64,000 nucleotides of DNA from Candidatus Omnitrophota bacterium (GCA_023247445.1 JAHFGL010000008.1:13774-77773), one strand, 5' to 3'; positions 7,936 to 47,742 are shown, numbered from the stretch's first letter. The notes: generated from the sequence alone by a model not told the origin. Program-made: numbers and translations.

Positions 7936-9891
7936 ATGTCTGTTGTGGAAAACAAAGGAGAACATAAAATTTTATGGGTATGCTGGGAGAAACCGGATAT
8001 TTCTCCAACGGCCGATATGGTGGCTTTAAGCTTTCTTAAACCCAGCGTTGAAGACGGGTTAAAGGGGCAATGGTCAGTTCCTTTGATTTCAGCGCGAGAA
8101 GTTGTTTCCGAGGTTAAAGAAAAAGCCTTAAATTTGTATATCGATATCATTGCCCAAATAGGCATCGTATCTTTAAATGGCATGACATTTCGCAAAGCTT
8201 TGTGTGGCAGTGATGAAGTGAGTTCTTGGTGGTTTCATAAAGCAGCCTGTAAGGATTGTGAAAGCGAACCGACATTTAATCAGATCATTCAGATTCTAAC
8301 TATTCAGCGGATTGCTCAGGAATATCAATGCACGGACATTATTCTTTGCGGCGGGCCATATGAAATCGCACAGGTTTTAAGCAATATGTTTCCCATAAAG
8401 ATTTTAAATTGTAAAAAGCAATCTTTATTATTTCTCTGCGGATTTTCACTGCTTCGCCGGTTTAAGTTCGTTCTGAAATTTTTATACGAGTGGATGTGTC
8501 TTAAGCGCTGTGTTTGTATTCCCGAGAATAGTATAGATATATTATTTTCCGGTTTCTGGGATTGGAGTGTCAAGGAAAATCCTTTAACGGCTAAACTCGA
8601 AGATCGGTATTTTCGGGCCGTCCCGGAAAAATTGCATAACCAGGGTATGCGGCTTGGTTGGTTAACATGGTTTTATAATAATTATGAAACGAATAAACCG
8701 CGACGATCCATTTTTAAGGTTATCGAACCTTTGGCGAAACATTCCCGCATTATCATCGCCCAATGTTTCTTAAGCATAGGGGAGATTTTTCGATCGGTGA
8801 CGCGGTTTAAGCCGTTCTTTACTTTTCTAAGGTATCAGCACCAGGAAGCGTTCAAAAATATTTTTAAACGGAACGGTTTAAATTTTTATCCGCTCCTCAA
8901 GAAATGGCTGTATGCCGGGTTTTTAGATGGGACACTTCCTTATCATGAATTAATTTGTTTGGCTCATAGAAAGGCAGTTCAAAAATATCAGCCTAAGGCC
9001 GTTGTGAGTTTTCTTAATTTTTTCCCGTATGCCCGTGCGTTGTGTGCCGGTGTCAAAAAAGGGTGTCCTTCATGTGCGGTGTATGATATGCAGCACGCGA
9101 GCTATGCATGGGAAGATACTATTGGAAGGCTCGATAGCCGTTGGGAATTCGATGGCATCCCGGATGGATGCTCAATACCGCATGCGGATTACATGTTTGT
9201 GATGGGGGAATTAGGCAGGGATATTTTTATGAAAAGCGGGTTTTCGGACAAACAAATACTATTGACAGGGTCATCCCGTTATGACGAGGCATCTTCGGTG
9301 GATGTGAATAATGGCCGAGACCGCAAATTTGGGAAAAATATTCTTATCGTGGCCGCGCTCAATAAGGAATTGGAGTTGGAGATGGTCGATTGTGTCTATA
9401 TGGTATTTTCTCAATTTCCCGATGTGTCAATTCATCTGCGTTCCCATCCTTTTTCTGATATCCGCTCAGCCATTCAGGCTCAACGATACGGGGACAAAAT
9501 TCATGTTACTTCTGGCACGGCACTCCATGAAGATTTGTCCCATGCCGATATCGTTATTTTTTCATATTCCACGGTTGCGGAAGAAGCTTTTATTCAAGGT
9601 GTTCCGGTTTGGCAGTGGATTTCCACGGGATATAATGCCTCGGCCTTTAGAGATATTAAAGTAGCTCCTGTTTTTTCTTCCGTTAAAGGACTTATTCAGT
9701 TGTATAAACAGTTTTTAAAAGATCCTCAACAGTTTATTCCGACTGTTGAACAGCGACAATTGGTCAAGAAAAAGTGTTTTTATATTAGAGAGGATGGTCT
9801 TCCTTCGGATAATATTGTAGAAGCCTTGGTTTTACAGTGTGGAATAGGAAAGGATCGCAATATTCCCGAACAAAAGGTGACGGTGGGATGA
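7936..9891 (+). CDS. Hypothetical protein with a TagF/KpsS-like GT-B C-terminal domain (possible CDP-alditol or CMP-sugar transferase)
   Basis: 651 aa. The C-terminal HADIVIFSYSTVAEEAFIQGVPVW parallels the TagF 'ADILITDYSSVFFDF...KPIIFY' motif. Confidence 0.35.
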   Translation: MSVVENKGEHKILWVCWEKPDISPTADMVALSFLKPSVEDGLKGQWSVPLISAREVVSEVKEKALNLYIDIIAQIGIVSLNGMTFRKALCGSDEVSSWWFHKAACKDCESEPTFNQIIQILTIQRIAQEYQCTDIILCGGPYEIAQVLSNMFPIKILNCKKQSLLFLCGFSLLRRFKFVLKFLYEWMCLKRCVCIPENSIDILFSGFWDWSVKENPLTAKLEDRYFRAVPEKLHNQGMRLGWLTWFYNNYETNKPRRSIFKVIEPLAKHSRIIIAQCFLSIGEIFRSVTRFKPFFTFLRYQHQEAFKNIFKRNGLNFYPLLKKWLYAGFLDGTLPYHELICLAHRKAVQKYQPKAVVSFLNFFPYARALCAGVKKGCPSCAVYDMQHASYAWEDTIGRLDSRWEFDGIPDGCSIPHADYMFVMGELGRDIFMKSGFSDKQILLTGSSRYDEASSVDVNNGRDRKFGKNILIVAALNKELELEMVDCVYMVFSQFPDVSIHLRSHPFSDIRSAIQAQRYGDKIHVTSGTALHEDLSHADIVIFSYSTVAEEAFIQGVPVWQWISTGYNASAFRDIKVAPVFSSVKGLIQLYKQFLKDPQQFIPTVEQRQLVKKKCFYIREDGLPSDNIVEALVLQCGIGKDRNIPEQKVTVG

Positions 9892-10985
9892 TGCAGAAAG
9901 CAAATGTTCTCATAACCGGTGGTGCAGGATTTATTGCCAGTCATTTGGTTGATCTTTTGGTTTCCCAGGGTCATACGGTTAGCATCATCGATAATTTTTC
10001 GACCGGAAGAAGAGAGAATCTCCTTCACCAAGAAGGTCAAGTGCATATCCTTGAAGCGGACATTACTGATTTCAATGCGATTTTCTCTTATTTTGCCGGT
10101 AAAGATATCGTTTTTCATCTGGCGGCTTTAGCCGATATTGTGCCATCTATCGTCAATCCGCGAGGGTATTATGCCTCGAATGTCATGGGAACGATGAATG
10201 TTGTTGAGGCGGCGCGGTTATGTGGTATTAAAAAAGTTGTATATGCGGCTTCATCATCCTGTTATGGTATCCCTACGGAAGAATTTTATCCCACTTCGGA
10301 AAAGGCGCCGAGTAGTCCGCAGTATCCCTATGCGTTGACGAAATATCTGGGTGAAAAAACTCTTCTTCATTGGGGAAAGGTTTATGATTTGGCGGTTATT
10401 TCTCTTCGGTTATTTAATGTGTATGGACCAAGATCAAGGACTTCAGGAACTTATGGTGCGGTTTTTGGCGTTTTTCTGGCGCAAAAATTGGATGGTAAGC
10501 CTTATACAGTTGTCGGCGATGGCAATCAGACCAGAGATTTTGTTTATGTTACGGATGTTGCCGAAGCATTTACCGTGGCCGCTTTTTCGAACGTCAAAAA
10601 TGAAATTTTCAACGTTGGAACGGGTGATCCGCAAAGTATTAATAAATTAGTCGCTCTTTTGGGAGGCAAAAAGGTTAATATTCCCAAACGTCCCGGAGAG
10701 CCCGACTGCACCTGGGCCGATATTCATAAAATTAAATCCATGTTAGGATGGCAGCCAAAGGTTTCTTTTGAAGAAGGCGTTGGAAAAATTTTGGAGCACA
10801 TTGATTATTGGAAGGAAGCTCCCGTTTGGACACCGGAAACAATTGAAAAGGCCACCGAAGAGTGGTTTAAATATTTGAATGGCCGGGAATTATCGACCAT
10901 TCATCCCGAGAAGCGAAGCGATGAGGGATCTACGCTTCGCGATCCTTTGCCATCCGGGCTTCAGGATGAACGCTTGGGTAAGTAA
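9888..10985 (+). CDS. NAD-dependent sugar-nucleotide epimerase/dehydratase (extended SDR)
   Basis: VLITGGAGFIASHLV Rossmann and YxxxK region. ATGATG start with ATGA overlap onto the upstream stop. Confidence 0.8.
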   Translation: MMQKANVLITGGAGFIASHLVDLLVSQGHTVSIIDNFSTGRRENLLHQEGQVHILEADITDFNAIFSYFAGKDIVFHLAALADIVPSIVNPRGYYASNVMGTMNVVEAARLCGIKKVVYAASSSCYGIPTEEFYPTSEKAPSSPQYPYALTKYLGEKTLLHWGKVYDLAVISLRLFNVYGPRSRTSGTYGAVFGVFLAQKLDGKPYTVVGDGNQTRDFVYVTDVAEAFTVAAFSNVKNEIFNVGTGDPQSINKLVALLGGKKVNIPKRPGEPDCTWADIHKIKSMLGWQPKVSFEEGVGKILEHIDYWKEAPVWTPETIEKATEEWFKYLNGRELSTIHPEKRSDEGSTLRDPLPSGLQDERLGK

Positions 10986-11014: not shown

Positions 11015-12547
11015 ATGAATAACGGAATTCTAAAAAAAATACAATCACCAGAGAGATTGGCTAAAATCGTTGATGACCTCAAGAAAAAAGGGAAAAAGAT
11101 TGTTCTCTGTCATGGTGTGTTTGACATCGTTCATTTAGGACACATACGACATTTTAATCAAGCCAAACAAAACGGAGACATTCTTATCACCTCATTGACT
11201 AAGGATAAGTATGTCAAACGCGGGCCAGGACGTCCGTTCTTTAATGAGCGTCTGCGGGCTGAGACCTTGGCTTCGCTCGCTATGACCGATTATGTATCCA
11301 TGGTGGATTCACCGACCGCTGTGGATTTTATCAAAAAGGTTAAGCCTAATGTTTATGCCAAAGGCCCTGATTACAAAGCAAAGAATAAAGACGTCACGGG
11401 TAAAATATTTGATGAAGAAGATGCTATTGAAGCGGTGGGAGGAAGGCTTGTCTTTACCGATGATATCACATTCAGTTCCTCAAAACTCTTAAATGATTAT
11501 CTGGATGCGTATCCCGCGCGCACCGTTAAATACTTAAAGGCCATAAATAAGCGTTACACAATTGGCCAGATCGTTGAATCAATCGAGGCGTTAAAAAAAA
11601 TAAAAGTATTGGTGATTGGAGATGCCATCATCGACGAATATCATTACTGTTTCCCATTAGGCAAGTCATCCAAGGAGCATTTGGTTGTTAACCGTTACGA
11701 ATCGAAGGAAATGTTTGCCGGCGGTAGTTTGGCAACGGCTAATAACGCGGCGAGTGTCTGTGGTCAGGTAGATTTAGTGACGGTCCTGGGAAAAAAGAAA
11801 TCCTGCCAGGGCTTTATTGAAAATCATTTGAGTCTGAACGTCAGACCTAAATTTTTTTACCGCTTGGATACAGGAACAATCGTAAAAAGAAGATATGTCA
11901 GTAAGATACAAAATAGGAAGCTTTTTGAAATATGTTATATTAAAGATACGGATATTATTCAGAGCGAAGAAGATAAAATCATTGACCATCTTAAAAAAGT
12001 AATCAAAAATTATGACGTTGTGATCGTTTCCGATTATGGACATGGGTTTCTAACCAAGCGCATACGGGATTTAATTTGCTCCAAGGCCAGATATCTCGCC
12101 TTGAATGTTCAGACTAACAGCGCCAACATTGGATTTAATCTAGTGACAAAATACCCCAGGGCGGATTGCGTGTGCATTGATGAGTTAGAGTTGCGTTATG
12201 CCACTCACGAACGTTTTAGTGATCTGCGGGCGCATGCTAAGAAAGTGTATCAGCAGCTTAGATGCGAACATATCATCGCCACGCGCGGTTCATACGGGTC
12301 TTTGTGTTATTCGGTAAAAAATGGTTTTCATGAAACACCGGCCTTCTCCAGTCGTGTGGTAGACCCTATTGGGGCGGGGGATGCTTTTTTTGCTTTTATC
12401 GCCCCGTGTTTTGCCACCGGGATGCCGCAGGAATTGGTATCCTTTATCGGCAACGCCGTCGGTTCGCTGGCGGTGCAGATTGTTTGCAACCGCGAACCCG
12501 TAAAATCAGTGGATCTTATAAAGTTTATTACAAGATTATTAAAATGA
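11015..12547 (+). CDS. Bifunctional heptose-phosphate kinase/heptose-1-P nucleotidyltransferase, HldE(RfaE)-like with reversed domain order
   Basis: N-terminus LCHGVFDIVHLGHIRHF matches the HIGH-motif nucleotidyltransferase domain II of HldE. The C-terminal 330 aa is a PfkB-family carbohydrate kinase (VLVIGDAIIDEY...DPIGAGDAF). 510 aa. Confidence 0.7.
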   Translation: MNNGILKKIQSPERLAKIVDDLKKKGKKIVLCHGVFDIVHLGHIRHFNQAKQNGDILITSLTKDKYVKRGPGRPFFNERLRAETLASLAMTDYVSMVDSPTAVDFIKKVKPNVYAKGPDYKAKNKDVTGKIFDEEDAIEAVGGRLVFTDDITFSSSKLLNDYLDAYPARTVKYLKAINKRYTIGQIVESIEALKKIKVLVIGDAIIDEYHYCFPLGKSSKEHLVVNRYESKEMFAGGSLATANNAASVCGQVDLVTVLGKKKSCQGFIENHLSLNVRPKFFYRLDTGTIVKRRYVSKIQNRKLFEICYIKDTDIIQSEEDKIIDHLKKVIKNYDVVIVSDYGHGFLTKRIRDLICSKARYLALNVQTNSANIGFNLVTKYPRADCVCIDELELRYATHERFSDLRAHAKKVYQQLRCEHIIATRGSYGSLCYSVKNGFHETPAFSSRVVDPIGAGDAFFAFIAPCFATGMPQELVSFIGNAVGSLAVQIVCNREPVKSVDLIKFITRLLK

Positions 12548-12560
12548 AAGGTATCTCCCT

Positions 12561-13586
12561 ATGCGTAAATTGAATTCTGTTTTTGTGACCGGTGGGGCGG
12601 GATATGTCGGCGCCGTGCTGGTCCCGAAGTTATTAAAGAAAGGATACAAGGTTAAAGTTTTGGATTTATACACGTATGGGCTGGATGTCTTTGACGGTAT
12701 CGAGGATAAATCCAATCTTGAGGAAATTAAGGGGGATATTTGCGATGTAGATTTGTTGCAAAAAAGCCTGCGCGGTTGTGATAGTGTCATTCATTTGGCT
12801 TGTATTTCCAATGATCCGAGTTTTGAACTGAATCCCACGTTAAGCCGTAAAGTAAATTATGAAGCCTTTGAGCCGCTGGTACGTATCAGTAAAGAAAGCG
12901 GCGTGCGGCGTTTTATCTACGCTTCCACATGTAGTGTATACGGATTAAGTGATGCGGAAAATGTCACTGAGGATCATCCGCTGGTTCCTATCACGGATTA
13001 CAATAAATACAAAGGGTTATGTGAGCCTATCCTTTTTAAATACCAATCGCCGGAATTTACCGCTGTGACTATCCGGCCGGCCACTGTCTGCGGTTATTCT
13101 CCGCGGCAGCGATTTGACCTCACGGTCAACATTTTAACAAACCATGCGTATAACAACAATCATATCCTTGTCTTCGGCGGCAGTCAGGAGCGCCCGAATC
13201 TGCATATTGAAGATATGACGGATCTTTATGGCCTACTTCTGGAATTACCCGATGAAAAAATCGCCGGCAAGACCTACAACGCGGGTTATCAAAACCGCTC
13301 CGTTGCCGATATCGCTGAGATCGTTCGGCGTGTCATGGCCGAAGAATTGCCCGAGCGGCCCAAGATTACAGTTGAAACAAGACCTTCAGATGATATCCGC
13401 TCTTACCGCATTTCTTCAGAGAAGATAAAACGTGAATTAAATTTTGTCCCGCGGCACACAATTGAAGACGCGGTGCGGGATCTGATTAAAGCATTTAAGG
13501 CCGGTAAGTTTCAAGATTCCCTAAACAATATCCGGTATTTTAATATTAAAACGCTCAAATCAACGGAACCCCAATGCGCTGTCTAA
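12561..13586 (+). CDS. NAD-dependent epimerase/dehydratase (SDR)
   Basis: VFVTGGAGYVGAVLV. 341 aa. Confidence 0.75.
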   Translation: MRKLNSVFVTGGAGYVGAVLVPKLLKKGYKVKVLDLYTYGLDVFDGIEDKSNLEEIKGDICDVDLLQKSLRGCDSVIHLACISNDPSFELNPTLSRKVNYEAFEPLVRISKESGVRRFIYASTCSVYGLSDAENVTEDHPLVPITDYNKYKGLCEPILFKYQSPEFTAVTIRPATVCGYSPRQRFDLTVNILTNHAYNNNHILVFGGSQERPNLHIEDMTDLYGLLLELPDEKIAGKTYNAGYQNRSVADIAEIVRRVMAEELPERPKITVETRPSDDIRSYRISSEKIKRELNFVPRHTIEDAVRDLIKAFKAGKFQDSLNNIRYFNIKTLKSTEPQCAV

Positions 13587-14689
13587 TGAATATTCCTTAC
13601 GTGGATTTGGCCGAACAGCATACTTCCATTAAAGACGAATTACTAAACGCTGTGGCCAAAGTTTTAGATCATGGAAAATTTATTTTAGGAGAAGAGGTCG
13701 CCGAATTTGAAGAGCGTTTTGCTCAATTATGCGGCGTACAATATGCGGTGGGACTTAATTCGGGGACAGATGCGCTCATTTTAGCTTTACGGGCGCTTGG
13801 CATCGGTTCCGGGGATGAGGTCATTACGGCGGCCAATTCGTTTGTTTCTTCGGCAAGTTGCATTGTGTGTGCGGGTGCCAAGCCCATTTTTGTGGATGTC
13901 GGTGAAGATTATTTGATGGATCCCGCCTTAATTGAAAAAACGATCACGTCCAAGACAAAAGCGTTGTTGCCAGTCCATTGGACAGGTCGTCCGGGGGATA
14001 TGGAGGCTATTAAGACAATTGCTAAAAAATATAAATTAGCCGTCATTGAAGATTGTGCGCAGGCGGTAAATGCCGAGTATCAGGGACAAAAGGTTGGTTC
14101 ATTCGGCGATGCGGGCTGTTTTAGTCTGCATCCCCTTAAGACACTTAATGCCTGCGGCGATGGGGGAGTGCTTACAACTAACCGCCATGATCTTTATGAG
14201 AAAATATTGACGCTGCGGGATAATGGATTTTACCGGCGCAATGAGTGTGTTTCTTGGAGCAATAATTCCCGTCTTGATACAATTCAGGCGGCGATGTTAC
14301 TTGTCAAATTAAATTATCTGGAAAAATGGACGGAGCAACGGCGAAAGAATGCCCGCTTTTATCAACAGCATCTCAAGGATATATCCGGAATACAGTTGCC
14401 GCCTGAAGAAAAAGATATGCGCGCTGTTTATCATACGCTTATCATTCAGGCCGACCGCCGGGATGAATTACAGGCATTTCTCACCGAGCAGGGGATTGGG
14501 ACTAAGGTTCACTACGCTGTACCGATTCATCTGCAGCCGGTGGCTAAAGAATTGGGATATAAAGTGGGAAGCCTGCCAGTGACTGAGCGTCAGGCGGCCA
14601 GGGTTTTGAGTCTGCCGGTTTCTCAATCGTTGCAGCCGGAAATGCTGGAATATGTTGTTAATGCCATACGAGAATTCTACAAAAAATAA
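13574..14689 (+). CDS. DegT/DnrJ/EryC1/StrS family PLP-dependent sugar aminotransferase
   Basis: Typical family architecture with conserved Lys region (SFGDAGCFSLHPLKTL). 371 aa. Confidence 0.8.
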   Translation: MRCLMNIPYVDLAEQHTSIKDELLNAVAKVLDHGKFILGEEVAEFEERFAQLCGVQYAVGLNSGTDALILALRALGIGSGDEVITAANSFVSSASCIVCAGAKPIFVDVGEDYLMDPALIEKTITSKTKALLPVHWTGRPGDMEAIKTIAKKYKLAVIEDCAQAVNAEYQGQKVGSFGDAGCFSLHPLKTLNACGDGGVLTTNRHDLYEKILTLRDNGFYRRNECVSWSNNSRLDTIQAAMLLVKLNYLEKWTEQRRKNARFYQQHLKDISGIQLPPEEKDMRAVYHTLIIQADRRDELQAFLTEQGIGTKVHYAVPIHLQPVAKELGYKVGSLPVTERQAARVLSLPVSQSLQPEMLEYVVNAIREFYKK

Positions 14690-14697
14690 GGGAAATT

Positions 14698-15846
14698 ATG
14701 AACGTACCCTACTCTTATCTTGATGAACAGTTTGCTCAAATTGACGATTACCTTCAGGATGTCCGTAGATTGGTGCAAAGCGGCGATTTTACCTTGGGTC
14801 AAGCGGTGATGGAGTTTGAAGAACGTTTCGCCAAATTGTGCGGTTTGCCATATGCTATTGGTGTCGGGTCCGGTACGGATGCGCTTATCCTCTCTTTAAA
14901 AATTTTAGGGATCGGGCCTGGGGATGAAGTGATTACAACACCCAATACGTTTATCTCAACGGTGGGCGCTATCGCGATGACCGGAGCCCGTCCGGTTTTT
15001 GTCGATAACAATGACGAATACACCATTGATGTCAATCAAATTGAAAAGGCCATTACCTCGAAAACAAAGGCGATCTTGCCTGTGCATTTAACGGGCTGTC
15101 CAGCGGATATGCCGCGGATTATGGACACAGCCAAGAAGCATAAATTGCTTGTCGTGGAAGATGCCGCGCAGGCGATTCTTGCCAAAATCAACGGTAAACA
15201 CGTGGGTTCATGGGGTAAGACGGCCTGCTTTAGTCTGCACCCGCTAAAAAATTTAAATGTTTGGGGGGATGGCGGTGTCATCGTTACGCGTTCGGCTGAG
15301 CTGTGCCGGAAGTTAAAATTATTCCGTAACCATGGGATGACGACTCGCGATGAGATCGAGATGTTTTCACACAATTCTCGCCTGGATTCACTGCAGGCCG
15401 TGATTGGCAATCGGTTGATTAATGAGGTGGAGGATATCACTCAAAAACGCATCGCCAACGCCCGGCAATATGATGAAGCGTTCAAGGATATGAAAGAGTA
15501 CATCACTATTCCTCAACGGTATCCCAGCATTCAGCAGGTTTACCATACCTATGTGCTGCGGGTGAAGAACCGTGACGCGCTTTTGAATCATCTGATTGAA
15601 CGCGGAATTAAGGTCAAAATTCATTATCCCATTCCCGTGCATCTGCAGAAAGCGGCCTCGTATCTGGGTTATAAAAAAGGTGATTTCCCCGTTTGTGAGA
15701 AAGATTCTCAGGCGATTATTAGTTTGCCCGTACATCAGCATCTGACAGCTCAGCAAATAAATTATGTGATTGATTGCGCGCGGGAGTTTTACATTAAGCA
15801 CGACACTAGGAGAACCGCGGACAATGCGTTGTATACTCGGGGTTGA
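14698..15846 (+). CDS. DegT/DnrJ/EryC1/StrS family sugar aminotransferase (tandem paralogue)
   Basis: SWGKTACFSLHPLKNL. About 40% identical to the previous ORF by eye. 382 aa. Confidence 0.8.
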   Translation: MNVPYSYLDEQFAQIDDYLQDVRRLVQSGDFTLGQAVMEFEERFAKLCGLPYAIGVGSGTDALILSLKILGIGPGDEVITTPNTFISTVGAIAMTGARPVFVDNNDEYTIDVNQIEKAITSKTKAILPVHLTGCPADMPRIMDTAKKHKLLVVEDAAQAILAKINGKHVGSWGKTACFSLHPLKNLNVWGDGGVIVTRSAELCRKLKLFRNHGMTTRDEIEMFSHNSRLDSLQAVIGNRLINEVEDITQKRIANARQYDEAFKDMKEYITIPQRYPSIQQVYHTYVLRVKNRDALLNHLIERGIKVKIHYPIPVHLQKAASYLGYKKGDFPVCEKDSQAIISLPVHQHLTAQQINYVIDCAREFYIKHDTRRTADNALYTRG

Positions 15847-16474
15847 TTTTGATAATACCGTTGTTAATTACGACGATGTTCTGTTTAAAACAGCCATGCA
15901 TCTGGGTTTCATCGATTCTAGTGCGGCTAAGGGTAAGAAAAATATCCGTGATTGTATCCGTCAGTTACCAGGAGGGGAAATTAAATGGCAGAAATTACAG
16001 GCGTATGTCTATGGCAAAGCGATGGATGAGGCGATATTAATAGACGGGGTGCGAGAGTTTTTTAATTCTTGCCGGCGGGAGAGTGTCCGCGCTTACATCG
16101 TCAGTCATAAGACTGAATTTGCCGCTTTAGGTATCGAGAAGATCAATTTGAGGGAAACAGCGTTAAATTGGATGAGAAAAAATAATTTCTTCGAAGAGAA
16201 AGGATTGGGGATTTCTGCGGATATGGTGTATTTCGAAGCCAGCCGCTTAGCGAAGATTGAACGCGTTAAACAGTTAGGATGCACGCATTTTATTGATGAC
16301 CTAGAAGAGACGTTTGGTGAAGAGGCGTTCCCAGCGAATATTCATAAAATACTTTATTCTTCTCATCATCATCCTGACGTCGATGTTTGGTCGGCTGATG
16401 CTAAGCCCAATGGTGTAACCGTCATGCGTAATTGGAGGGAGATTTATGACTATTTCTTTAATAAAAGAAGATAG
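15824..16474 (+). CDS. HAD-superfamily hydrolase/phosphatase
   Basis: ILGVDFDNTVV DxD motif at the N-terminus. ATG 15824 preceded by AGGAGA. The track ORF starts at 15770. Confidence 0.5.
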   Translation: MRCILGVDFDNTVVNYDDVLFKTAMHLGFIDSSAAKGKKNIRDCIRQLPGGEIKWQKLQAYVYGKAMDEAILIDGVREFFNSCRRESVRAYIVSHKTEFAALGIEKINLRETALNWMRKNNFFEEKGLGISADMVYFEASRLAKIERVKQLGCTHFIDDLEETFGEEAFPANIHKILYSSHHHPDVDVWSADAKPNGVTVMRNWREIYDYFFNKRR

Positions 16475-17537
16475 CCGGACTATTTCAGAAATCCAAAATT
16501 TGGCGTCGCAGATGCTCAACAGCAGTGTTATTTTAGCCGAGCGTTTCGGTAACGGATCAAATAGCCGGGTATTCCGGCTTCTATGCACCGATTCCAAACA
16601 GTATGTGGCCAAATTTTATTTCCATCATCCGACTGATCCAAGAGACCGTTTAAATATCGAATATTCCAGCTTTTCTTTTTTAAAGGCTCAGGGTATCACG
16701 AATGTCCCTCATCCTATTATTTTGAATCAGGAGGAATCCTGCGCGATTTATGAATTTATTGAAGGGGAGAAAATCTCTTCCGAAAGTGTCACTGCCGAAA
16801 CGATCACCTCAGCCGTCGATTTTCTAGTAAAACTTAAAGAATTGAAAAAAAATCCGCAAAGCCAGAATTTACCACCGGCTTCGGAAGCGTGTTTTTCAAT
16901 TCAAGCGATTATTGACAACATTCTAGAACGGTTGAATCGATTATATAAATTGCCGGAAGAGACAGAAGGCTACGGTGAGTTTAAGTCTTTTCTTATAAGT
17001 GGCATTAGACCATTTCTAAATATCCTCCGGGAATGGGTGCATCGAAGAGCTGTCCAATTGCATATCCCTTTTAATACCGAGATACCATTCGGGCAAAGGA
17101 CATTAAGTCCATCGGACTTCGGATTTCATAATGCCGTTCGGGACAAAAATGGCCGTATCGTTTTTTTTGATTTTGAATATTTCGGCTGGGATGATCCGGC
17201 GAAACTGATTTGTGATTTTCTCCTTCATCCGGCTATGACATTAAGTGATGAGATAAAGAAGACATTTATTCTAGCTATGGCAGAAAGCTTTAAAGAAAAC
17301 GAACAGTTGATCAAGCGCGTGGCATTAATCTATCCTTTTTTGGGTATAAAATGGTGTTTGATATTTCTAAATGAATTTATTCCTGATGACTTTTCTCGGC
17401 GACTTTACGCCGCGGGCGGCCCCCTTGATCGCGCTAGTGTACGTCAAGAACAATTGTTAAAGGCAAGGAATTTGTATCGCAGGATTAAAGAAACGTATCA
17501 AGATTTTCCTTATCAAAAAGGACATAAATGGCTTTAG
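16446..17537 (+). CDS. Aminoglycoside-phosphotransferase/choline-kinase-fold small-molecule kinase
   Basis: HNAVRDKNGRIVFFDFEYFGWDDP is the catalytic-loop and DFG-like motif of the APH fold. 363 aa. Confidence 0.5.
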   Translation: MTISLIKEDSRTISEIQNLASQMLNSSVILAERFGNGSNSRVFRLLCTDSKQYVAKFYFHHPTDPRDRLNIEYSSFSFLKAQGITNVPHPIILNQEESCAIYEFIEGEKISSESVTAETITSAVDFLVKLKELKKNPQSQNLPPASEACFSIQAIIDNILERLNRLYKLPEETEGYGEFKSFLISGIRPFLNILREWVHRRAVQLHIPFNTEIPFGQRTLSPSDFGFHNAVRDKNGRIVFFDFEYFGWDDPAKLICDFLLHPAMTLSDEIKKTFILAMAESFKENEQLIKRVALIYPFLGIKWCLIFLNEFIPDDFSRRLYAAGGPLDRASVRQEQLLKARNLYRRIKETYQDFPYQKGHKWL

Positions 17538-18334
17538 ACCAAAGGTCAAAATATTTACGCCGAAGGATCATCGAAACACTCAATGCCGTGCGGCGCGGCC
17601 ATGTGGGAGCGGCTTTATCGCTTGTCGAGATTCTGCGCGTGCTTTACGATGATGTGCTGCATTACGATATTAATAATCCAAAATGGCCGCAGCGGGATCG
17701 CTGTATTTTAAGTAAAGGGCACGGTTGTTTGGCTCTTTATGTGGTTTTGGTGGATAAAGGATTCTTTGCCCAAGAAGAATTGTGGAAATTTTGCGAATCC
17801 GATGGGATTCTCGGTGGACACCCTGAAATTAAAGTGCCGGGAGTAGAGGCTTCCACGGGAAGTTTGGGTCATGGTTTTCCTATTGGTGTGGGATTTGCTT
17901 TAAACGCAAAATATGAGAAGGTAGATTATCGCACGTTTGTCGTTATAGGCGATGGCGAATGTAATGAAGGCTCGATATGGGAAGCGGCGATGTGTGCCAG
18001 TAAGCATAGATTGGATAATCTCATTGTTATTGTAGACCATAATCAATATCAGTCCTATGGACCCACATGTGGGGTCTTGAATTTGGAGCCTTTTGCGGAG
18101 AAATGGAAGGCCTTTGGGTTTGCCGTCGAAGAAGTGGATGGACATGATGTCGGTGCCATGCGCTCTGTTTTGGGGAGGGTTCCTCTTCAAGCAAATAAAC
18201 CAACAGTGATCATTTGTCATACACTTAAAGGCAAGGGGATACGTTGCACCGAAGGTAATTTAAAATGGCATCACAAAAGCGGGATCAGCGATGAAGAAAT
18301 TCAGCAGCTTTACGAAGCGCTGGAGGTGTCTTAA
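17528..18334 (+). CDS. Transketolase, N-terminal (ThDP-binding) subunit
   Basis: GHPEIKVPGVEASTGSLGHGFPIGVGFA and GDGECNEGSIWEA motifs. 268 aa, split form. Confidence 0.8.
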   Translation: MALDQRSKYLRRRIIETLNAVRRGHVGAALSLVEILRVLYDDVLHYDINNPKWPQRDRCILSKGHGCLALYVVLVDKGFFAQEELWKFCESDGILGGHPEIKVPGVEASTGSLGHGFPIGVGFALNAKYEKVDYRTFVVIGDGECNEGSIWEAAMCASKHRLDNLIVIVDHNQYQSYGPTCGVLNLEPFAEKWKAFGFAVEEVDGHDVGAMRSVLGRVPLQANKPTVIICHTLKGKGIRCTEGNLKWHHKSGISDEEIQQLYEALEVS

Positions 18335-19299
18335 TGCGTAAAATGTGTCTGGAAATGGTTTATGAATTGGCTCAAAAAGACGAGCGTGTTTTTTTTATCG
18401 GTTCGGATCTGGGTGTAGGAACGTTACAAAAATTTAAAAATGAAATGCCGGAGCGATTTTTTATGGAAGGAATTAGTGAAGCTAATATCATCGGTATGGC
18501 CGCCGGTTTGGCTATGGAAGGAAAAATTCCTTACGTAAATACAATTGCCACCTTTTTAACCCGACGCTGTTTCGAGCAAGTTGTGGTTGATTTGGGATTG
18601 CACAATTTGAATGTCCGTCTTTTAGGAAATGGCGGTGGGCTGGTATATGCACCTTTGGGACCAACCCATGAAGCGATCGATGACCTGGCTATTTTACGAA
18701 CGATTCCGAATATGACCGTTATTGCACCCTGTGATGCTAACGAAATGCACCGTGCTATGCTGCAAACGCTCGATTATCAAGGCCCGATCTATCTGCGCGT
18801 TGCCAAGGGCAATGATCCGATTGTCTCAAGAGACGATATTGCGTTTAAAATCGGCAAGGCACTTTTAATGAGTCCCGGATCGGATGCGCTTATTCTCACA
18901 ACAGGGACCACCTTAAGAATGGGTTTAGAGGCCTCGGCAATATTAAAAAAACGAGGATTAGAGGTGGGGGTTGTACATGTTCCAACCATCAAGCCATTGG
19001 ATAAGAGAACCCTCTTAGAATGTATGGAAAAAATACCGATTGTTGTTACCATTGAGGAGCATAGTGTTATCGGCGGGTTAGGGGGAGCTGTCGCTGAGAT
19101 TATGGCTGAAGCCAATTTTTCATCGGCAAAATATTTTAAACGCGTGGGGATTCCCGATGTTTTTCCTGACCAATATGGTTCTCAGGCGAGCTTGATGGAG
19201 TATTTCGGGATTACGACGGAGAATGTAGTTTCGATTATTCATCGATTCAATCAATCAGAAAAATCACAACAAATATTTGAACAGGAATTTGTTAAATAA
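18334..19299 (+). CDS. Transketolase, C-terminal (pyrimidine-binding) subunit
   Basis: EGISEANIIGMAAGLA. 321 aa. ATGA-type junction with the N-terminal subunit. Confidence 0.8.
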   Translation: MRKMCLEMVYELAQKDERVFFIGSDLGVGTLQKFKNEMPERFFMEGISEANIIGMAAGLAMEGKIPYVNTIATFLTRRCFEQVVVDLGLHNLNVRLLGNGGGLVYAPLGPTHEAIDDLAILRTIPNMTVIAPCDANEMHRAMLQTLDYQGPIYLRVAKGNDPIVSRDDIAFKIGKALLMSPGSDALILTTGTTLRMGLEASAILKKRGLEVGVVHVPTIKPLDKRTLLECMEKIPIVVTIEEHSVIGGLGGAVAEIMAEANFSSAKYFKRVGIPDVFPDQYGSQASLMEYFGITTENVVSIIHRFNQSEKSQQIFEQEFVK

Positions 19300-19312
19300 C
19301 AAGGGGGGAACG

Positions 19313-20386
19313 ATGCAAGACAAATTTAACATGGATGGACATAAACTTCATTGGCATCTCGATCGGGTTAATGATTTTATGCAGGGCAAAAGGATCGCGC
19401 CGCTTCACATCGATTTGGGAATCACCACTGGATGTAATATGGCCTGCACATATTGTTATGGCGTCATTCAAGGACGCACCGGTATGAGCACCCGTACCGA
19501 TATGCCGGCAGAAACGATTACCCGTTTTTTCAGAGATGCGAAAGAGGTAGGTGTTCGTTCAATTGCCATTATAGGGGAAGGGGAGAATACGGTTAACCCC
19601 GCTATTTGGGATGCCTTTGCCTGCGCTAAGGAGATTGGTTTGGACATCAGCCTTGCCACCAACGGCATGGTTGTTCCCAAAGATAAGATATATGACATGC
19701 TTTCAGCTTTGATGTGGATTAGAATCAATATCAGTGCCGCCGACCCGGAGGCATTTTACAAACTCCATAGGGTCAGACAATTTGAAAATGTTTGCAACAA
19801 TATTAAGGCGCTTGTGGCAGTCAAGAAGCAACATGGTTTGAAAACAACGATTGGAATGCAGATGGTTGTCATGGACAATAACATGGATCAAATTGTCCCT
19901 TTAGCCAAGTTAGGTAAGGAGCTAGGTGTTGACTATTTGGTCGTGAAAGCCTGTTCGGACACCAAAGAAAAAACTTTGGATTCACCCAGCGAAAAATATC
20001 TCGAAATTGAATCGACTTTAAAAGAAGCGGAGTCCTTAAGCGAAGGAGATTACCGCGTTATCATCAAGTGGCATAAGCTTCAGAATAAAGGAATTAAGGA
20101 TTATAAGGTCTGTTATGGAACAAATTTTATCCTCGCCATTAGCGGGAAGGGATGCGTGTATCCCTGCGGGCATTGGTTTGATATCCGATCGGATGAGTTT
20201 TTTATGGGTAATATCAATGAAACGTCTTTCAAGGACATCGTTGCCAGCGATCGCTACGCCGAGGTACAAAAGAGAATCCAAAAGGTCGATGTCAACTGTG
20301 AATGTGAGAGCAATTGCCGGCCGCACTATGTCAACCGATATTTGTGGCAATTAAAGAATCCGCCGGAACACGTCAATTTTGTTTAA
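19313..20386 (+). CDS. Radical SAM enzyme with a Cys-rich C-terminal (SPASM/twitch-like) region
   Basis: GCNMACTYCYG (CxxxCxxC), plus C-terminal CVYPCGHW and CECESNC. Start ATG 19313 after AAGGGGGG. The track ORF starts at 19277. Confidence 0.7.
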   Translation: MQDKFNMDGHKLHWHLDRVNDFMQGKRIAPLHIDLGITTGCNMACTYCYGVIQGRTGMSTRTDMPAETITRFFRDAKEVGVRSIAIIGEGENTVNPAIWDAFACAKEIGLDISLATNGMVVPKDKIYDMLSALMWIRINISAADPEAFYKLHRVRQFENVCNNIKALVAVKKQHGLKTTIGMQMVVMDNNMDQIVPLAKLGKELGVDYLVVKACSDTKEKTLDSPSEKYLEIESTLKEAESLSEGDYRVIIKWHKLQNKGIKDYKVCYGTNFILAISGKGCVYPCGHWFDIRSDEFFMGNINETSFKDIVASDRYAEVQKRIQKVDVNCECESNCRPHYVNRYLWQLKNPPEHVNFV

Positions 20387-20404: not shown

Positions 20405-21271
20405 ATGAAAATTTTGGTTTTCGGTTCAACCGGGCTTATTGGCACGGCTCTTGAGATTGTGAGCCGTAAAAAAAACATCCAGTGTGTCGGTTTGGGACAT
20501 CACGATGTTGACGCAACGGATGAACAGGCTGTGCGTAAAGCAATCATTGAACACCGCCCAACGGTTGTGATTAATAGTGTCGTGATCATCGGCCCGCCGT
20601 GTGAAGAAGATCCATTAAAGGCATTTCAGGTAAATACATTAGCCGCTTATTACATGGCCAGGGTATGTGCTCAAGAAGATATCCTATTTATTCAACCAAG
20701 CACCCATGCTGTTTTTGACGGGACATTAGATGATTTCTACACGGAATCCGATGAGCCGCGGCCCATGAATATTTATAGCGGCAGTAAATACTTGGCAGAA
20801 ATTTTTGCAGCTAATTTATGTCCTAAACATTATATTGTACGTTTTCCGACGATGTTCGGCCCGCGCAGAAATCAGAAAGGAGGGTTCGTAGACAAGATGC
20901 TTGCTCGAATCAAAAGCGGACAGGAGTTAAGAGTAGTCGTTGATAAAATCGATTCTTTAAGTTATTCCATTGATATTGCCGGGCAGATACTCTTGATGCT
21001 AGACCGCCAGGTTCCTTATGGATTTTATCATCTGGCTAACGCGGGAAAGATTAGTTTTTATGAGTTCATCAGGAAAATGATGCAGTTGTTAGAGGTAAAA
21101 AATAACCTTGTACCGGCCAAGGCAGGCGATTTTTCGACGCAAGGTCATCAATCCTTAAAAACCGCCATGAAATCGGAAAAACTTCCTTCTTTGAGAAATT
21201 GGGAAGAGGCTTTATCCGAATACGTTTCCGTTTATTTAAAACCAGGAATTCATGAGGAGGTAAAAAAGTGA
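20405..21271 (+). CDS. RmlD-like (dTDP-4-dehydrorhamnose reductase family) SDR
   Basis: MKILVFGSTGLIGTAL. 288 aa, the length and N-terminus typical of RmlD. Confidence 0.55.
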   Translation: MKILVFGSTGLIGTALEIVSRKKNIQCVGLGHHDVDATDEQAVRKAIIEHRPTVVINSVVIIGPPCEEDPLKAFQVNTLAAYYMARVCAQEDILFIQPSTHAVFDGTLDDFYTESDEPRPMNIYSGSKYLAEIFAANLCPKHYIVRFPTMFGPRRNQKGGFVDKMLARIKSGQELRVVVDKIDSLSYSIDIAGQILLMLDRQVPYGFYHLANAGKISFYEFIRKMMQLLEVKNNLVPAKAGDFSTQGHQSLKTAMKSEKLPSLRNWEEALSEYVSVYLKPGIHEEVKK

Positions 21272-23750: not shown

Positions 23751-25518
23751 AATTTTTAAGAAATTTCCGTTTTTGCTGACCGCCAATGTTCTTTTGTTCG
23801 TGGTGGTAGGCGTCTTGGGGGCATGTTCGCTGTTATCCGCCGGGCCTTTGGTTGATTTTTTTCTCGATCCGCAATTACACAACGCAAGTGCTCTGACGAA
23901 GAAGGCGGTAGCGTTTTTGGCATCTTGGGGAATTCCGGCAACGCTCGCCACTTGGACGATTGTCCTTATCGTTTTTGTTGCTTTGGTCAATGTGTTTCAG
24001 GTTTTAGCCAGGCATTCCATTCTTAAGACCAAATACGCCGTATTGCGGGATTTGATGCTTGGGACATTTGAAGATTTTTTCAATACACGCTGGTATTTTT
24101 TCAGCAGCGGCAGACAGGGAATGTTGCTTAATACCTTTACACGCGAAATTACCGTCATTGGAGATGCCTTTGGAGCCATGGCGCTTTTTTTTGCCAATAT
24201 ATTACAATTGGGTTTTGCTCTTGTTATTCCATTTTATCTGTCGTGGCAGGTTACGTTAATTAGCCTCAGCGCCGCCTTACTGTTCGCCCTGCCGTTTGCC
24301 TTATTTAGCAAATACAGTTATCGTTTGGGAAAGCTTAATACGGCAACGGCTAATGAGATGACTTCGGTCGTGCATGAGAATCTCGCCGCCGCTAAACTTT
24401 TATTGGGATTCGGCAACCAGAAAAAAGGCAATGACCGTTTCGCCGAGGCTTTTGACGCGCACCGTTGTGTGACGGTGAAGTCTCAAATCATCAACATAGC
24501 CATTCCAATTCTCTATCGTCCTTTTGCGATTATTACGGTTGTTATTGCTTTATTTGCGGCACAGCGGTTCCATGTGCCGTTTTCTGAGATAACTATATTG
24601 TTGTTTGCTCTTTTACAAGTGGCGATTTCACTCAGCAGTATTACGACCCAAAAAAACGCCTTGGAGAATTTTTTCCCAAGTTATGAACAAATTAAGCATC
24701 TGCGCGAGCGTGCGCGTGAAATGCGTCAACCGCTGGGCAAAAGAGAATTCAAAGGTTTTAAAGAGAATATTATGGTTGAGCATTTGTCTTTCTCTTATCC
24801 GGGCCATGCGCCTGTCTTAAAAGAAGTAAATATTCGTATTGCTAAAGGTAAAATGATTGCGCTCGTCGGAAAATCCGGCGCAGGTAAGTCAACCTTAATT
24901 GATATTCTCATGGGCTTTCATCAACAGACCGCAGGGCGCATTATGTTCGATGGAATCTCTTTTCAAGAGTATGATACCAATTCATATCGTTGCTGTATTG
25001 GCTATGTGCCGCAGGACAGTGTTTTATTTAACATGAGCATTCGTGACAATTTGTTATGGGCAAACCCGAAAGCATCACAAAAGCAATTAGAAGAGGCTTG
25101 TCGTTTGGCTTATGCCGATGAATTTATCAGCCGTTTGCCGGAAGGGGATAACACCGTTGTTGGAGACCGTGGGGTGCGGCTTTCAGGCGGACAAATCCAG
25201 AGGATGGCCTTAGCCAGGGCTTTTGTCCGCTGTCCGGAACTTTTGATTTTAGATGAAGCGACCAGTTCGCTGGATACGCATTCCGAGAGGTTTATTCAAA
25301 AAGCTATTGAAAATATCGCAACCCAGACGACTGTGGTTGTTGTCGCGCATCGTCTTTCAACTATTAAGAAAGCGGATTGTATTTATGTTATGGAAAACGG
25401 CCAGATCGCAGAAGAAGGGACGTATGCGGATCTTGTTGGCAGCGAGGGCCGTTTTAATTCCATGGTTAAGCTTCAGGAGCTGGAAGTTCTTTCTACGAAT
25501 AATATGATCAAAATATGA
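23725..25518 (+). CDS. ABC exporter, fused permease-ATPase (MsbA/type I exporter-like)
   Basis: About 6 TM helices at the N-terminus. Walker A GKSGAGKST, signature LSGGQIQR and Walker B ILDEATS. GTG start after AGAGGGGGAA. Confidence 0.85.
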   Translation: MKSLVFICEIFKKFPFLLTANVLLFVVVGVLGACSLLSAGPLVDFFLDPQLHNASALTKKAVAFLASWGIPATLATWTIVLIVFVALVNVFQVLARHSILKTKYAVLRDLMLGTFEDFFNTRWYFFSSGRQGMLLNTFTREITVIGDAFGAMALFFANILQLGFALVIPFYLSWQVTLISLSAALLFALPFALFSKYSYRLGKLNTATANEMTSVVHENLAAAKLLLGFGNQKKGNDRFAEAFDAHRCVTVKSQIINIAIPILYRPFAIITVVIALFAAQRFHVPFSEITILLFALLQVAISLSSITTQKNALENFFPSYEQIKHLRERAREMRQPLGKREFKGFKENIMVEHLSFSYPGHAPVLKEVNIRIAKGKMIALVGKSGAGKSTLIDILMGFHQQTAGRIMFDGISFQEYDTNSYRCCIGYVPQDSVLFNMSIRDNLLWANPKASQKQLEEACRLAYADEFISRLPEGDNTVVGDRGVRLSGGQIQRMALARAFVRCPELLILDEATSSLDTHSERFIQKAIENIATQTTVVVVAHRLSTIKKADCIYVMENGQIAEEGTYADLVGSEGRFNSMVKLQELEVLSTNNMIKI

Positions 25519-26630
25519 GTAAAAATCCTTATATAAAAATAGCCAATCGTTTAGTCGGCCAAGACTATCCACCTTTAGTGATCGCTGAAATCGGCATTAA
25601 CCATGAAGGGAGTCTTAAAAAAGCGCTTCAAATGGTCGATGACGCGAAAAAAGCCGAATGTGAGTGCGTTAAGTTTCAATGTCATGTCATTGAAGATGAA
25701 ATGATTCCGGCGGCTAAATCCGTTATTCCAGGAAATGCTAAAGAAAGTATTTGGAATATTATGGAAAGATGCGCCCTTAGCGAAAAAGAGGAGGCGCATT
25801 TAAAAAAATACGTTGAATCGAAAGGCATGATTTATCTTTCAACGCCGTTTTCGCGCTCGGCGGCGGAAAGGTTAGAAAAAATGAAAGTAATAGCGTATAA
25901 AATTGGTTCCGGCGAATGTAATAATTATCCTTTAATCGAGCATATAGCTTCCTACGGCAAGCTCGTCATTCTTAGCACGGGTATGAATGATCTCTCAACT
26001 ATAACGCCAGCGGTTAAAATCTTAAGAAAGATGAGAGTTCCCTTTGCTTTAATGCATTGTACGTCCATGTATCCCACTCCTTACGCGAAGGTACGCTTGG
26101 GCGCTGTTTCCGAATTGGCTAAAACCTTTCCGGATGCCGTTCTTGGCTTAAGCGATCATTCATTGGGAATTTATACATGTCTTGCCTCGGTGGTTTTGGG
26201 CGCTAGTATTCTTGAGAAACATTTCACCTCCGATAAGACTTGGTCTGGCCCGGATGTTCCTATTTCCATAGATCCATTGGAGCTTAAAGAATTAATCGAG
26301 GGATCAAAAGCTATTCACCAGGCTCTGGGCGGGCAAAAAGATATTTTAGCTCAGGAACAGCCGACGATTGATTTTGCCTATGCGTGTGTTGTCTCAACGC
26401 GAGACATCCGCCAAGCAGAAGCGTTAACGAGGGAAAATATTTGGGTAAAACGTCCTGGAACGGGAGAGATTAAGGCAAAAGACTTTAATAATCTTTTAGG
26501 AAAAAAAGTCAACGTTAGTATTAAAAAAAATGAACAGTTAAAGTGGAATCAAATAATCCATGGTAAATATAGTTTAAACTTTAAGGAGGAAGAGTCCAAT
26601 GCGAATTTATCTCGCGCAATTAACACATGA
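25515..26630 (+). CDS. N-acylneuraminate/nonulosonate synthase (NeuB family) with C-terminal SAF domain
   Basis: IAEIGINHEGS signature. 371 aa, consistent with a TIM barrel plus antifreeze-like domain. Confidence 0.8.
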   Translation: MSKNPYIKIANRLVGQDYPPLVIAEIGINHEGSLKKALQMVDDAKKAECECVKFQCHVIEDEMIPAAKSVIPGNAKESIWNIMERCALSEKEEAHLKKYVESKGMIYLSTPFSRSAAERLEKMKVIAYKIGSGECNNYPLIEHIASYGKLVILSTGMNDLSTITPAVKILRKMRVPFALMHCTSMYPTPYAKVRLGAVSELAKTFPDAVLGLSDHSLGIYTCLASVVLGASILEKHFTSDKTWSGPDVPISIDPLELKELIEGSKAIHQALGGQKDILAQEQPTIDFAYACVVSTRDIRQAEALTRENIWVKRPGTGEIKAKDFNNLLGKKVNVSIKKNEQLKWNQIIHGKYSLNFKEEESNANLSRAINT

Positions 26631-29801: not shown

Positions 29802-29811
29802 AAAAAGTTAA

Positions 29812-30312: not shown

Positions 30313-30321
30313 GAGGAGACC

Positions 30322-31170: not shown

Positions 31171-31184
31171 CTTAGAGATTTAAG

Positions 31185-46789: not shown

Positions 46790-46800
46790 AGGAGTGATAG

Positions 46801-47727: not shown

Positions 47728-47742
47728 AAATAAGGCTGACTT

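Follow-up and report, generated by a model that had tools for sequence, protein, structure and literature searches.

Two split transketolase pairs with altered substrate pockets in a glycan gene locus of a Candidatus Omnitrophota bacterium

We analysed a stretch of 64,000 nucleotides from Candidatus Omnitrophota bacterium (GCA_023247445.1 JAHFGL010000008.1:13774-77773), referred to here as the window, together with fragments of the same metagenome contigs. The window encodes two split transketolases, each as an N-subunit and a C-subunit gene (pair 1, 17528-19299; pair 2, 43128-44899). In both pairs the thiamine diphosphate (ThDP) catalytic apparatus is predicted to be intact and the substrate channel to be remodelled throughout the family. 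Each pair sits in its own large, horizontally scattered gene cassette, and each probably makes an unusual surface sugar. Our favoured reading, whose chances we put at about even, is that both pairs are active ThDP-dependent enzymes of the split-transketolase fold that were recruited to surface-glycan biosynthesis, where they would transfer a two-carbon ketol unit to a non-canonical acceptor.

Subunits and active sites of the two pairs

The four subunits are encoded by the following open reading frames (ORFs; aa, amino acids).

17528-18334, + strand: pair 1 N subunit, ThDP diphosphate-binding (PP) domain; 268 aa; PF00456 Transketolase_N, E 1e-46
18334-19299, + strand: pair 1 C subunit, pyrimidine-binding and transketolase C-terminal domains; 321 aa; Transket_pyr 4e-33, Transketolase_C 2e-27
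43128-43940, + strand: pair 2 N subunit; 270 aa; Transketolase_N 2e-43
43937-44899, + strand: pair 2 C subunit; 320 aa; Transket_pyr 1e-27, Transketolase_C 5e-19

An earlier reading of the DNA made without database searches (the sequence-only reading) had placed two mutually diverged transketolase pairs at exactly these coordinates. The ORFs and their Pfam domains agree with it, all four matches being far above the gathering scores, and the two pairs share 48% identity in the N subunits and 32% in the C subunits. The closest solved structure is the split transketolase of Carboxydothermus hydrogenoformans (6YAK/6YAJ), matched at E 3e-67 by the pair 1 N subunit and at 2e-58 by the pair 1 C subunit; the 6YAK C subunit is only ∼37% identical to the C subunits of the window. 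Stop and start codons overlap by 10 nt between the gene of an APH-fold kinase and that of the pair 1 N subunit, by 1 nt (pair 1) or 4 nt (pair 2) between N- and C-subunit genes, and by 4 nt between the pair 2 C-subunit gene and the GT2 gene that follows it, which suggests translational coupling. Judged by their sequences, both pairs are intact split (alpha2-beta2) transketolase-fold subunits of the N/C type.

On NF004559, the best of the transketolase equivalog models, which is built on a fused protein of 627 aa (cut-off 488 bits), the N and C subunits scored 264.7 + 198.4 bits for pair 1 and 252.6 + 180.0 bits for pair 2; the sums, 463 and 433, are a rough measure, since two separate subunits are added together. 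The dxs model TIGR00204, whose cut-off is 466 bits, gave scores of 39-189 bits, the C subunits reaching 189 and 132.

Active-site residues were mapped by alignment to E. coli TktA (NC_000913.3; E. coli numbering is used below) and to 6YAK, and the positions of E. coli residues 358-386 were read from an alignment anchored on pair 1. Residue counts refer to 120 representatives per family for the C subunits and to 62 pair 1 family members for the N subunit. The equivalents of H26, H66, H100, G114, L116, D155, E160, N185 and H261 are kept in both N subunits, and this set is conserved in 61-62 of the 62 family members. Position 100, which is Phe in dxs-type proteins, is His in both pairs and in 61/62 members. 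The near-universal G-D-G of the ThDP motif is replaced by S-D-A in the pair 2 N subunit (43128-43940), with the metal-binding Asp and Asn retained; the same S-D-A occurs in two relatives (L005, 9204-10004; L007, 17914-18705). The C subunits of both pairs retain R358, D381, L382, E411 and H473, and E411 and H473 were found in 120/120 representatives of each family.

The phosphate-binding residues of transketolases are R358, S385, H461 and R520; D469 is the ligand of the acceptor 2-hydroxyl (the donor 4-hydroxyl). Of the four phosphate-binding residues, R358 alone is kept in both pairs. The replacements are uniform or nearly so in the pair 1 family:

Position (6YAK residue): pair 1 family; pair 2 family (120 representatives each)
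S385 (S): G 120/120; T 56, M 46, L 9
H461 (H): G 120/120; G 120/120
D469 (D): L 119/120; A 88, N 22, G 4, D 2
R520 (R): K 119/120; K 120/120

In the window itself, S385 has become G (pair 1) and T (pair 2), and D469 has become L (pair 1) and A (pair 2). The Carboxydothermus enzyme keeps S385, H461, D469 and R520; the R358 position lies outside the stretch compared for 6YAK. The sequence-only reading had argued that two copies imply at least one non-housekeeping role, and that a full canonical phosphate-binding set in both, if they were also the only transketolase genes of the genome, would speak for housekeeping enzymes. We found this set in neither pair, with D469 lost as well, and the evidence goes further than the original claim in that both pairs look non-housekeeping.

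Two reported properties of these positions bear on the substrates: H100 is replaced by Phe in DXS, which uses a pyruvate donor, and controls pyruvate use, and E. coli transketolase mutated at R358, S385, D469 and R520 accepts non-natural aromatic aldehydes (PMC7661550). Since H100 is retained, a hydroxylated (glycolaldehyde-type) donor is expected.

The two families, separated by identity values and residue signatures, belong to a wider set of proteins. A HMMER search of 1.84 billion representatives returned 2017 proteins at E <=1e-30, and residues were examined in 128 full-length sequences (clustered at 50% identity) among the best 150 of these 2017. E411 and H473 were invariant (128/128). 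Position 461 was G in 94 sequences and H in 12; position 469 was L in 68, A in 16 and D in only 9. The canonical H461/D469/R520 triple was present in only 7 of the 128, namely those closest to the Carboxydothermus enzyme (49-56% identity). This pattern places pairs 1 and 2 within a large split-transketolase radiation in which the catalytic core stays constant while the acceptor pocket varies.

Three fusion proteins were found. P0277 joins a non-canonical C subunit (G461, L469, K520) to the Zn-dependent alcohol dehydrogenase that occurs in pair 1-type cassettes, a fusion that couples the transketolase reaction to a redox reaction on one shared intermediate. In P0334 a C subunit carries a methyltransferase-like tail. 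P0314 combines a C subunit with canonical residues and a GmhA-like isomerase domain; it gives a picture of what a transketolase coupled to sedoheptulose-7-phosphate (sedoheptulose-7-P) isomerisation looks like, with a canonical pocket, unlike pair 1.

Gene cassettes around the pairs

More than 120 cluster representatives are 66-79% identical to the pair 1 C subunit. Relatives of pair 1 were scanned in one genome per species, which gave at least 322 related loci; the best 80 of the 322 were analysed by tblastn searches with the window proteins. Because several contigs are short, the per-gene counts among the 80 loci are lower bounds. The 80 loci are 59-78% identical to pair 1. Their hosts include Planctomycetales, Omnitrophota, Dehalococcoidia, Acidobacteria, Nitrospirae, Verrucomicrobia, cyanobacteria (Microcoleus, Richelia) and WWE3 among the bacteria, and Woesearchaeota, Methanosarcinales and Nanoarchaeia among the archaea. 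Such a cross-phylum distribution at this level of identity points to a mobile module. On three long contigs, the relatives of pair 1 were surrounded by the same neighbourhood.

Clustering of the ORFs from the 80 loci gave the consensus order (SIS)-SDR-HldE-like-SDR-(DegT-DegT)-HAD-like-APH-TK_N-TK_C, where SDR stands for short-chain dehydrogenase/reductase and TK_N and TK_C for the transketolase subunits. A TK_N homologue was present in 80/80 loci. Downstream of TK_C, a 220-aa methyltransferase (53/80 loci) is followed by a Zn-dependent alcohol dehydrogenase (49/80); a WbuC cupin, C-methyltransferases and SDRs are other frequent tailoring genes. The corresponding genes of the window are as follows.

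4487-5107, + strand: GmhA-like SIS isomerase, a looser member of the cassette; 109 bits on the gmhA model against a cut-off of 209
9837-10985, + strand: SDR (GalE/LegB-like); 60/80 loci
11015-12547, + strand: HldE-like bifunctional protein (Pfam); 57/80 loci
12561-13586, + strand: SDR epimerase/dehydratase, PF01370; 59/80 loci
13574-14689, + strand: first of two tandem DegT aminotransferases, PF01041 8e-115
14698-15846, + strand: second DegT aminotransferase, PF01041 2e-104
15824-16474, + strand: HAD-like protein with phosphatase-type motifs, without a Pfam match; 70/80 loci
16446-17537, + strand: APH-fold kinase, PF01636; beside the transketolase pair in 75/80 loci
19277-20386, + strand: radical SAM/SPASM protein downstream of pair 1; homologue (cluster c30) in 6 loci
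20405-21271, + strand: RmlD-like reductase; RmlD-like SDR (cluster c15) in 14 loci

The APH-fold kinase and the radical SAM protein thus flank pair 1 as the sequence-only reading had described. The kinase and the HAD-like protein are the most constant companions of the pair. The catalytic residues D224/N229/D242 of the kinase are invariant in the family alignment, as are the DxDxT, S-H-K and DD motifs of the HAD-like protein, which also gave a weak e(P4) HAD match in NCBIfam. For the latter protein, the family alignment favours a start at ATG 15824 (MRCILGVDFDNT...) over TTG 15770 of the mechanical ORF; with the ATG start, the gene shares 23 nt with the 3' end of the DegT gene before it. Neither the kinase nor the HAD-like protein had a significant match in the PDB by single-sequence or profile searches. 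We considered the HAD-like protein as a GmhB and rejected this identity: in 8/80 loci a canonical GmhB is present in addition to it, so the two are distinct.

The genes of heptose type which the sequence-only reading had pointed out are indeed present, and both the GmhA-like and the HldE-like protein score below the NCBIfam equivalog cut-offs. The HldE-like protein has its domains in swapped order (nucleotidyltransferase N-terminal, PfkB kinase C-terminal) and scores 177, 128 and 104 bits on the HldE models, all below the cut-offs (177 vs. 521). The cassette SDRs reached 117 and 67 bits on heptose_epim against a cut-off of 275. A GmhA-like homologue was located within 10 kb of the transketolase genes in 32/80 loci. 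The DegT pair is optional (25/80 loci) and always lies between the SDR and the HAD-like gene; both proteins are PseC-like, below cut-off, and both translations contain the pyridoxal phosphate lysine motif SLHPLK. In one locus (L047) the four-gene core (HAD-like, APH, TK_N and TK_C) is present without an HldE-like gene, and a CMP-type cytidylyltransferase, glycosyltransferases and a MotB gene lie nearby.

The window is a variant of the consensus, in which the radical SAM/SPASM protein, the RmlD-like reductase, an FkbM methyltransferase and a TIGR04372 glycosyltransferase replace the methyltransferase and the Zn-dependent alcohol dehydrogenase. No copy of the latter two genes was detected in the window by tblastn. 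A hydrolysing 2-epimerase was found in none of the 80 loci, which weakened the candidate role of pair 1 in acting on a free 2-acetamido sugar (a sialic-acid-like release).

Some further observations were made on the pair 1 loci. A 270-aa neighbour (cluster c23; L023, L027, L028, L056 and L060), directly after the 220-aa methyltransferase, matches TIGR04324 ('sporadic carbohydrate cluster 2OG-Fe(II) oxygenase') with 292 bits against a cut-off of 150, indicating that parts of the pair 1 neighbourhood are already catalogued, without a function. The window segment 7936-9891 gave a weak match to TIGR04326 (the Leptospira LIC13510 family). On the Nitrospirae contig JAJRZK010000024.1, the whole pair 1-type cassette occurs twice, inverted and in identical order (L076 and L077; 3981-24874 and 42839-63732); either an inverted duplication or an artefact of the assembly may account for this. 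Two transketolase pairs are also present in L017, L022, L070 and L089, and double pairs are therefore not unique to the window.

For the pair 2 C subunit, too, more than 120 representatives were found (56-73% identity). They come from Anaerolineae, Chloroflexota, Planctomycetota, Acidobacteria and cyanobacteria, and some family members, several in number, carry the NCBI annotation DXS. A metagenome scan gave at least 570 pair 2 relatives, and gene counts were taken from 30 loci with at least 5 kb downstream of the transketolase genes. The window genes that follow pair 2 are:

44896-45618, + strand: GT2 glycosyltransferase (Pfam)
45569-46789, + strand: DUF4915/TIGR03032 protein (Pfam)
46801-47727, + strand: sulfotransferase (Pfam)
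47743-48726, + strand: SDR (Pfam)
48723-50948, + strand: YfhO-type (GT-C) membrane glycosyltransferase, 741 aa; PF09586, 34.4 bits against a cut-off of 28.5

The order TK_N-TK_C-GT2-DUF4915-sulfotransferase-SDR of the window (43128-48726) recurs in L005, L006 and L007, and in Anaerolineales and cyanobacteria the compact pair 2 operon is set among unrelated genes. An SDR was present in 28/30 loci and the trio of GT2, DUF4915 and sulfotransferase in 14/30. We distinguished type A, with the window order (∼20 metagenome loci), from type B (∼11 loci), in which methyltransferases and an SDR accompany an ArnC/GtrB-like GT2 with membrane helices at its C terminus. A few loci of the pair 2 family encode an SDR-GT2 fusion, and P0123, the closest relative of pair 2, adjoins a PMT_2 GT-C protein and a GT2. 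The YfhO-type protein probably makes use of what the pair 2 module produces. No GtrA-type flippase was identified for the pair 2 system.

Upstream of pair 2 lies a PseF-like CMP-sugar cytidylyltransferase gene (42409-43131), which the sequence-only reading had recognised as CMP-sugar synthetase-like. Its partnership with pair 2 was rejected: the gene is absent from the related cassettes, the conserved partners are downstream, and the proximity appears incidental.

The rest of the locus is in keeping with the cassettes. The window has 56 ORFs of 150 aa or more; all lie on the + strand, stop and start codons often overlap, and almost all are sugar-pathway genes. Sugar genes continue past the window end (GFO_IDH_MocA, GT2, radical SAM/SPASM), making this an unusually long one-directional glycan supercluster. 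It includes three B12-binding radical SAM genes (26599, 40812 and 51135) and a carbamoyltransferase at 33827. A nonulosonic-acid block occupies 25515-31874, with NeuB-family synthases at 25515-26630 (with a SAF domain) and 30322-31170 (without SAF), a B12-binding radical SAM protein (26599-28644), a UDP-GlcNAc 2-epimerase (28644-29801), a small HAD hydrolase (29812-30312) and a weakly matching CTP_transf_3 cytidylyltransferase (31185-31874). Further CMP-type cytidylyltransferases are encoded at 1490-2287 and 42409-43131; with several such enzymes, the locus may make more than one ulosonic acid. An MptE-like/DUF115 protein (39748-40791) weakly matches the flagellin modification protein PseD (Maf family), which suggests that part of the locus may glycosylate a protein such as flagellin, not lipopolysaccharide or capsule. 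At 52817-54708, a glucose-1-phosphate cytidylyltransferase (336 bits against an equivalog cut-off of 300) is followed by a GDP-mannose/CDP-glucose dehydratase-like SDR; this is a separate CDP-hexose branch in the locus.

Proposed chemistry and rival explanations

In the mechanism we propose, dihydroxyethyl-ThDP would be formed from a 1-hydroxy-2-keto donor (a ketose or hydroxypyruvate), and the two-carbon ketol (glycolaldehyde) unit would be added to a non-canonical carbonyl, not to an ordinary aldose phosphate. Candidate acceptors are an aldehyde without a recognised 2-hydroxyl, or the keto group of a non-phosphorylated or nucleotide-linked sugar. The new ketone would be reduced by the adjacent reductase, which in most pair 1 relatives would be the Zn-dependent alcohol dehydrogenase; the RmlD-like SDR (pair 1) and the SDR at 47743 (pair 2) are the candidates in the window. 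The product would be a chain-extended or C-branched sugar with a three-carbon polyol tail or a dihydroxyethyl branch.

Pair 1 would work within an NDP-heptose-like route (GmhA-like and HldE-like proteins, two SDRs and two aminotransferases), with the APH-fold kinase and the HAD-like phosphatase probably phosphorylating and later dephosphorylating the transketolase substrate or product. Two courses are conceivable. In one, an oxidised nucleotide sugar would serve as the acceptor. In the other, a free sugar would be the transketolase substrate at an early stage, and the kinase would phosphorylate the product of this reaction and the SIS protein isomerise it; the HldE-like protein would then 1-phosphorylate and nucleotidylate it and the HAD-like protein trim the distal phosphate, in parallel to ADP-heptose synthesis. 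The pair 2 SDR may either generate the keto group of the acceptor or act later as reductase of the product, and the GT2/sulfotransferase/YfhO module most likely attaches the modified sugar, which may be sulfated, to a lipid carrier for transfer to the outside of the membrane. A more far-reaching version is possible, and we hold it only tentatively: both families might form C-C bonds in undescribed C8/C9 or dihydroxyethyl/hydroxyacetyl-branched surface-glycan sugars of numerous phyla, most of them uncultivated, as a ThDP-dependent, phosphoenolpyruvate-independent counterpart of NeuB, and might be the tip of a split-transketolase radiation with pockets diversified at 385, 461, 469 and 520.

Several points weigh against ketol transfer to a non-canonical acceptor. 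Whatever goes beyond the presence, in a glycan cassette, of ThDP enzymes whose pocket is altered is our inference, and the residue assignments depend on how the sequences align with E. coli TktA and 6YAK. With R358 and a Lys at 520 in place, the pocket may still accommodate an anionic group, be it phosphate, diphosphate or carboxylate. Simple branching on a nucleotide sugar would leave the roles of the APH-fold kinase and the HAD-like protein unexplained. Heptose-route genes accompany pair 1 in ∼70% of the loci, which keeps a supply of sedoheptulose-7-P in contention. The product made in the window may also differ from the family norm, since the methyltransferase and the Zn-dependent alcohol dehydrogenase are missing.

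The sequence-only reading had offered two rationales for the pairs, a local supply of sedoheptulose-7-P to the GmhA/HldE-like route and ketol transfer to build higher-carbon or branched sugars. In the former, ordinary transketolase chemistry (xylulose-5-P + ribose-5-P) would feed the heptose route, and the cassette would carry the pairs for hosts with weak pentose-phosphate pathways. The co-occurrence of HldE-like (57/80) and GmhA-like (32/80) genes agrees with this, as do the existence of the P0314 fusion, the reduced-genome lineages among the hosts (Woesearchaeota, Nanoarchaeia, WWE3) and the retention of R358 and a basic residue at 520. We nevertheless consider the supply role unlikely. H461, S385 and D469 are replaced in essentially every member, whereas P0314 and 6YAK keep them; the kinase and the HAD-like protein are linked to pair 1 more tightly than the heptose genes, GmhA included; L047 has the core with a CMP-type cytidylyltransferase instead of an HldE-like gene; and the pair 2 cassette is without any heptose genes. 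Both families are also present in cyanobacteria, whose Calvin cycle requires a canonical transketolase in any case. Ketol transfer to a higher-carbon or branched sugar appears to fit these sequence features better than supply does.

A decarboxylating carboligase similar to DXS or E1 would use pyruvate or another 2-oxoacid as donor and put an acetyl/hydroxyethyl branch on a keto sugar, as enzymes of the YerE or AviB1/AviB2 type are thought to do. The DXS annotation of several pair 2 members, the dxs scores of the C subunits (189 and 132 bits) and a G-x-G-G-G in place of T-H461, which may be similar to E1-beta sequences, would be in line with such an activity. Its probability seems small to us: the best matches are all transketolase models and the split transketolase structure, position 100 carries the His of transketolases, and the dxs and E1 model scores are far under the cut-offs. 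Hydroxypyruvate is a possible donor, and its use would be transketolase-type chemistry that belongs with the favoured ketol transfer. The pairs might also work in the cleavage direction and remove a C2 unit from a ketose to shorten its chain, like a catabolic sulfo-transketolase or apulose-4-P transketolase. Transketolase reactions are reversible, and specialised split transketolases that cleave unusual ketoses have been reported (6-deoxy-6-sulfofructose transketolase). This is very unlikely here, as the surroundings are wholly biosynthetic (nucleotidyltransferases, glycosyltransferases, aminotransferases and methyltransferases) without transporters or catabolic enzymes, and the C2 unit would still need an acceptor. 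Finally, these might be housekeeping transketolases that happen to lie in a glycan locus, with a redundant paralogue as one of the two pairs; a split transketolase is the sole transketolase of some anaerobes and archaea (PMC7661550). With a gene order that is conserved around each pair across phyla, non-canonical recognition residues and summed subunit scores, rough as they are, under the NF004559 cut-off, this is highly improbable.

Significance and comparison with known systems

Transketolase is treated as an enzyme of central metabolism, and automatic annotation labels both families 'transketolase' or 'DXS'. The present analysis separates two phylum-spanning families from it, with at least 322 species loci (pair 1) and at least 570 metagenome loci (pair 2). 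If sugar extension or branching is indeed their function, new envelope monosaccharides would be expected in Planctomycetes, Omnitrophota, Acidobacteria, cyanobacteria, DPANN archaea and others. The families would then also provide natural transketolases pre-adapted to non-phosphorylated, non-alpha-hydroxylated acceptors for biocatalysis, for which engineers mutate the E. coli enzyme at R358, S385, D469 and R520 (PMC7661550). The cassettes are compact (4-10 genes), and the question is thus directly testable by heterologous expression.

No characterised split transketolase from a glycan cluster was found in the literature searched; in the wps-2 exopolysaccharide cluster of Actinoplanes, a split transketolase is annotated without a function. 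The split transketolase of C. hydrogenoformans (6YAK/6YAJ; PMC7661550) shares the ThDP- and metal-binding residues and the catalytic His and Glu residues with the window pairs, but keeps S385, H461, D469 and R520 where these have G/T, G, L/A and K, and the window pairs, unlike it, sit in glycan cassettes.

By analogy, the nearest functional precedent appears to be the hydroxyacetyl branching proposed for miharamycin and amipurimycin, whose split transketolases would add a hydroxyacetyl branch to a keto sugar and are uncharacterised in vitro (2025 review, PMC12247030). Those enzymes are likewise two-gene transketolases in a sugar-tailoring cluster with a proposed C2 ketol transfer to a sugar carbonyl, and SDRs adjoin both window pairs, which loosely matches their gene context. 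They differ in belonging to Streptomyces nucleoside-antibiotic clusters with other partners, a comparison made by description only. YerE of the yersiniose A pathway is a functional analogue, a ThDP-dependent C-C bond former that acts on a nucleotide-linked 4-keto sugar of O-antigen. Its architecture is unrelated: YerE is a single polypeptide with a decarboxylase (acetolactate-synthase-like) fold and uses a pyruvate donor.

The ADP-heptose pathway (GmhA/HldE/GmhB/HldD) resembles the pair 1 cassette in its GmhA-like and HldE-like proteins, its SDRs and, in some loci, a canonical GmhB. The cassette homologues, however, fall below the equivalog cut-offs, the HldE-like domains are reversed, and the canonical pathway has no transketolase, APH-fold kinase or second HAD protein. 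The pair 2 cassette, with a small GT2 and a YfhO-family protein in the window, and with ArnC/GtrB-like GT2s with membrane helices and in one case a PMT_2 GT-C protein among its relatives, is similar to the three-component extracytoplasmic glycosylation systems, in which a GtrB/CsbB-type GT2 acts with a GT-C protein (YfhO/ArnT) and a small flippase. The known systems transfer ordinary sugars or 4-amino-4-deoxy-L-arabinose (Ara4N), and none is known to contain a transketolase, a DUF4915 protein or a sulfotransferase. Compared with all of these systems, the fold and the type of chemistry of the two pairs are known, and it is the substrate pocket and the partners that are new here.

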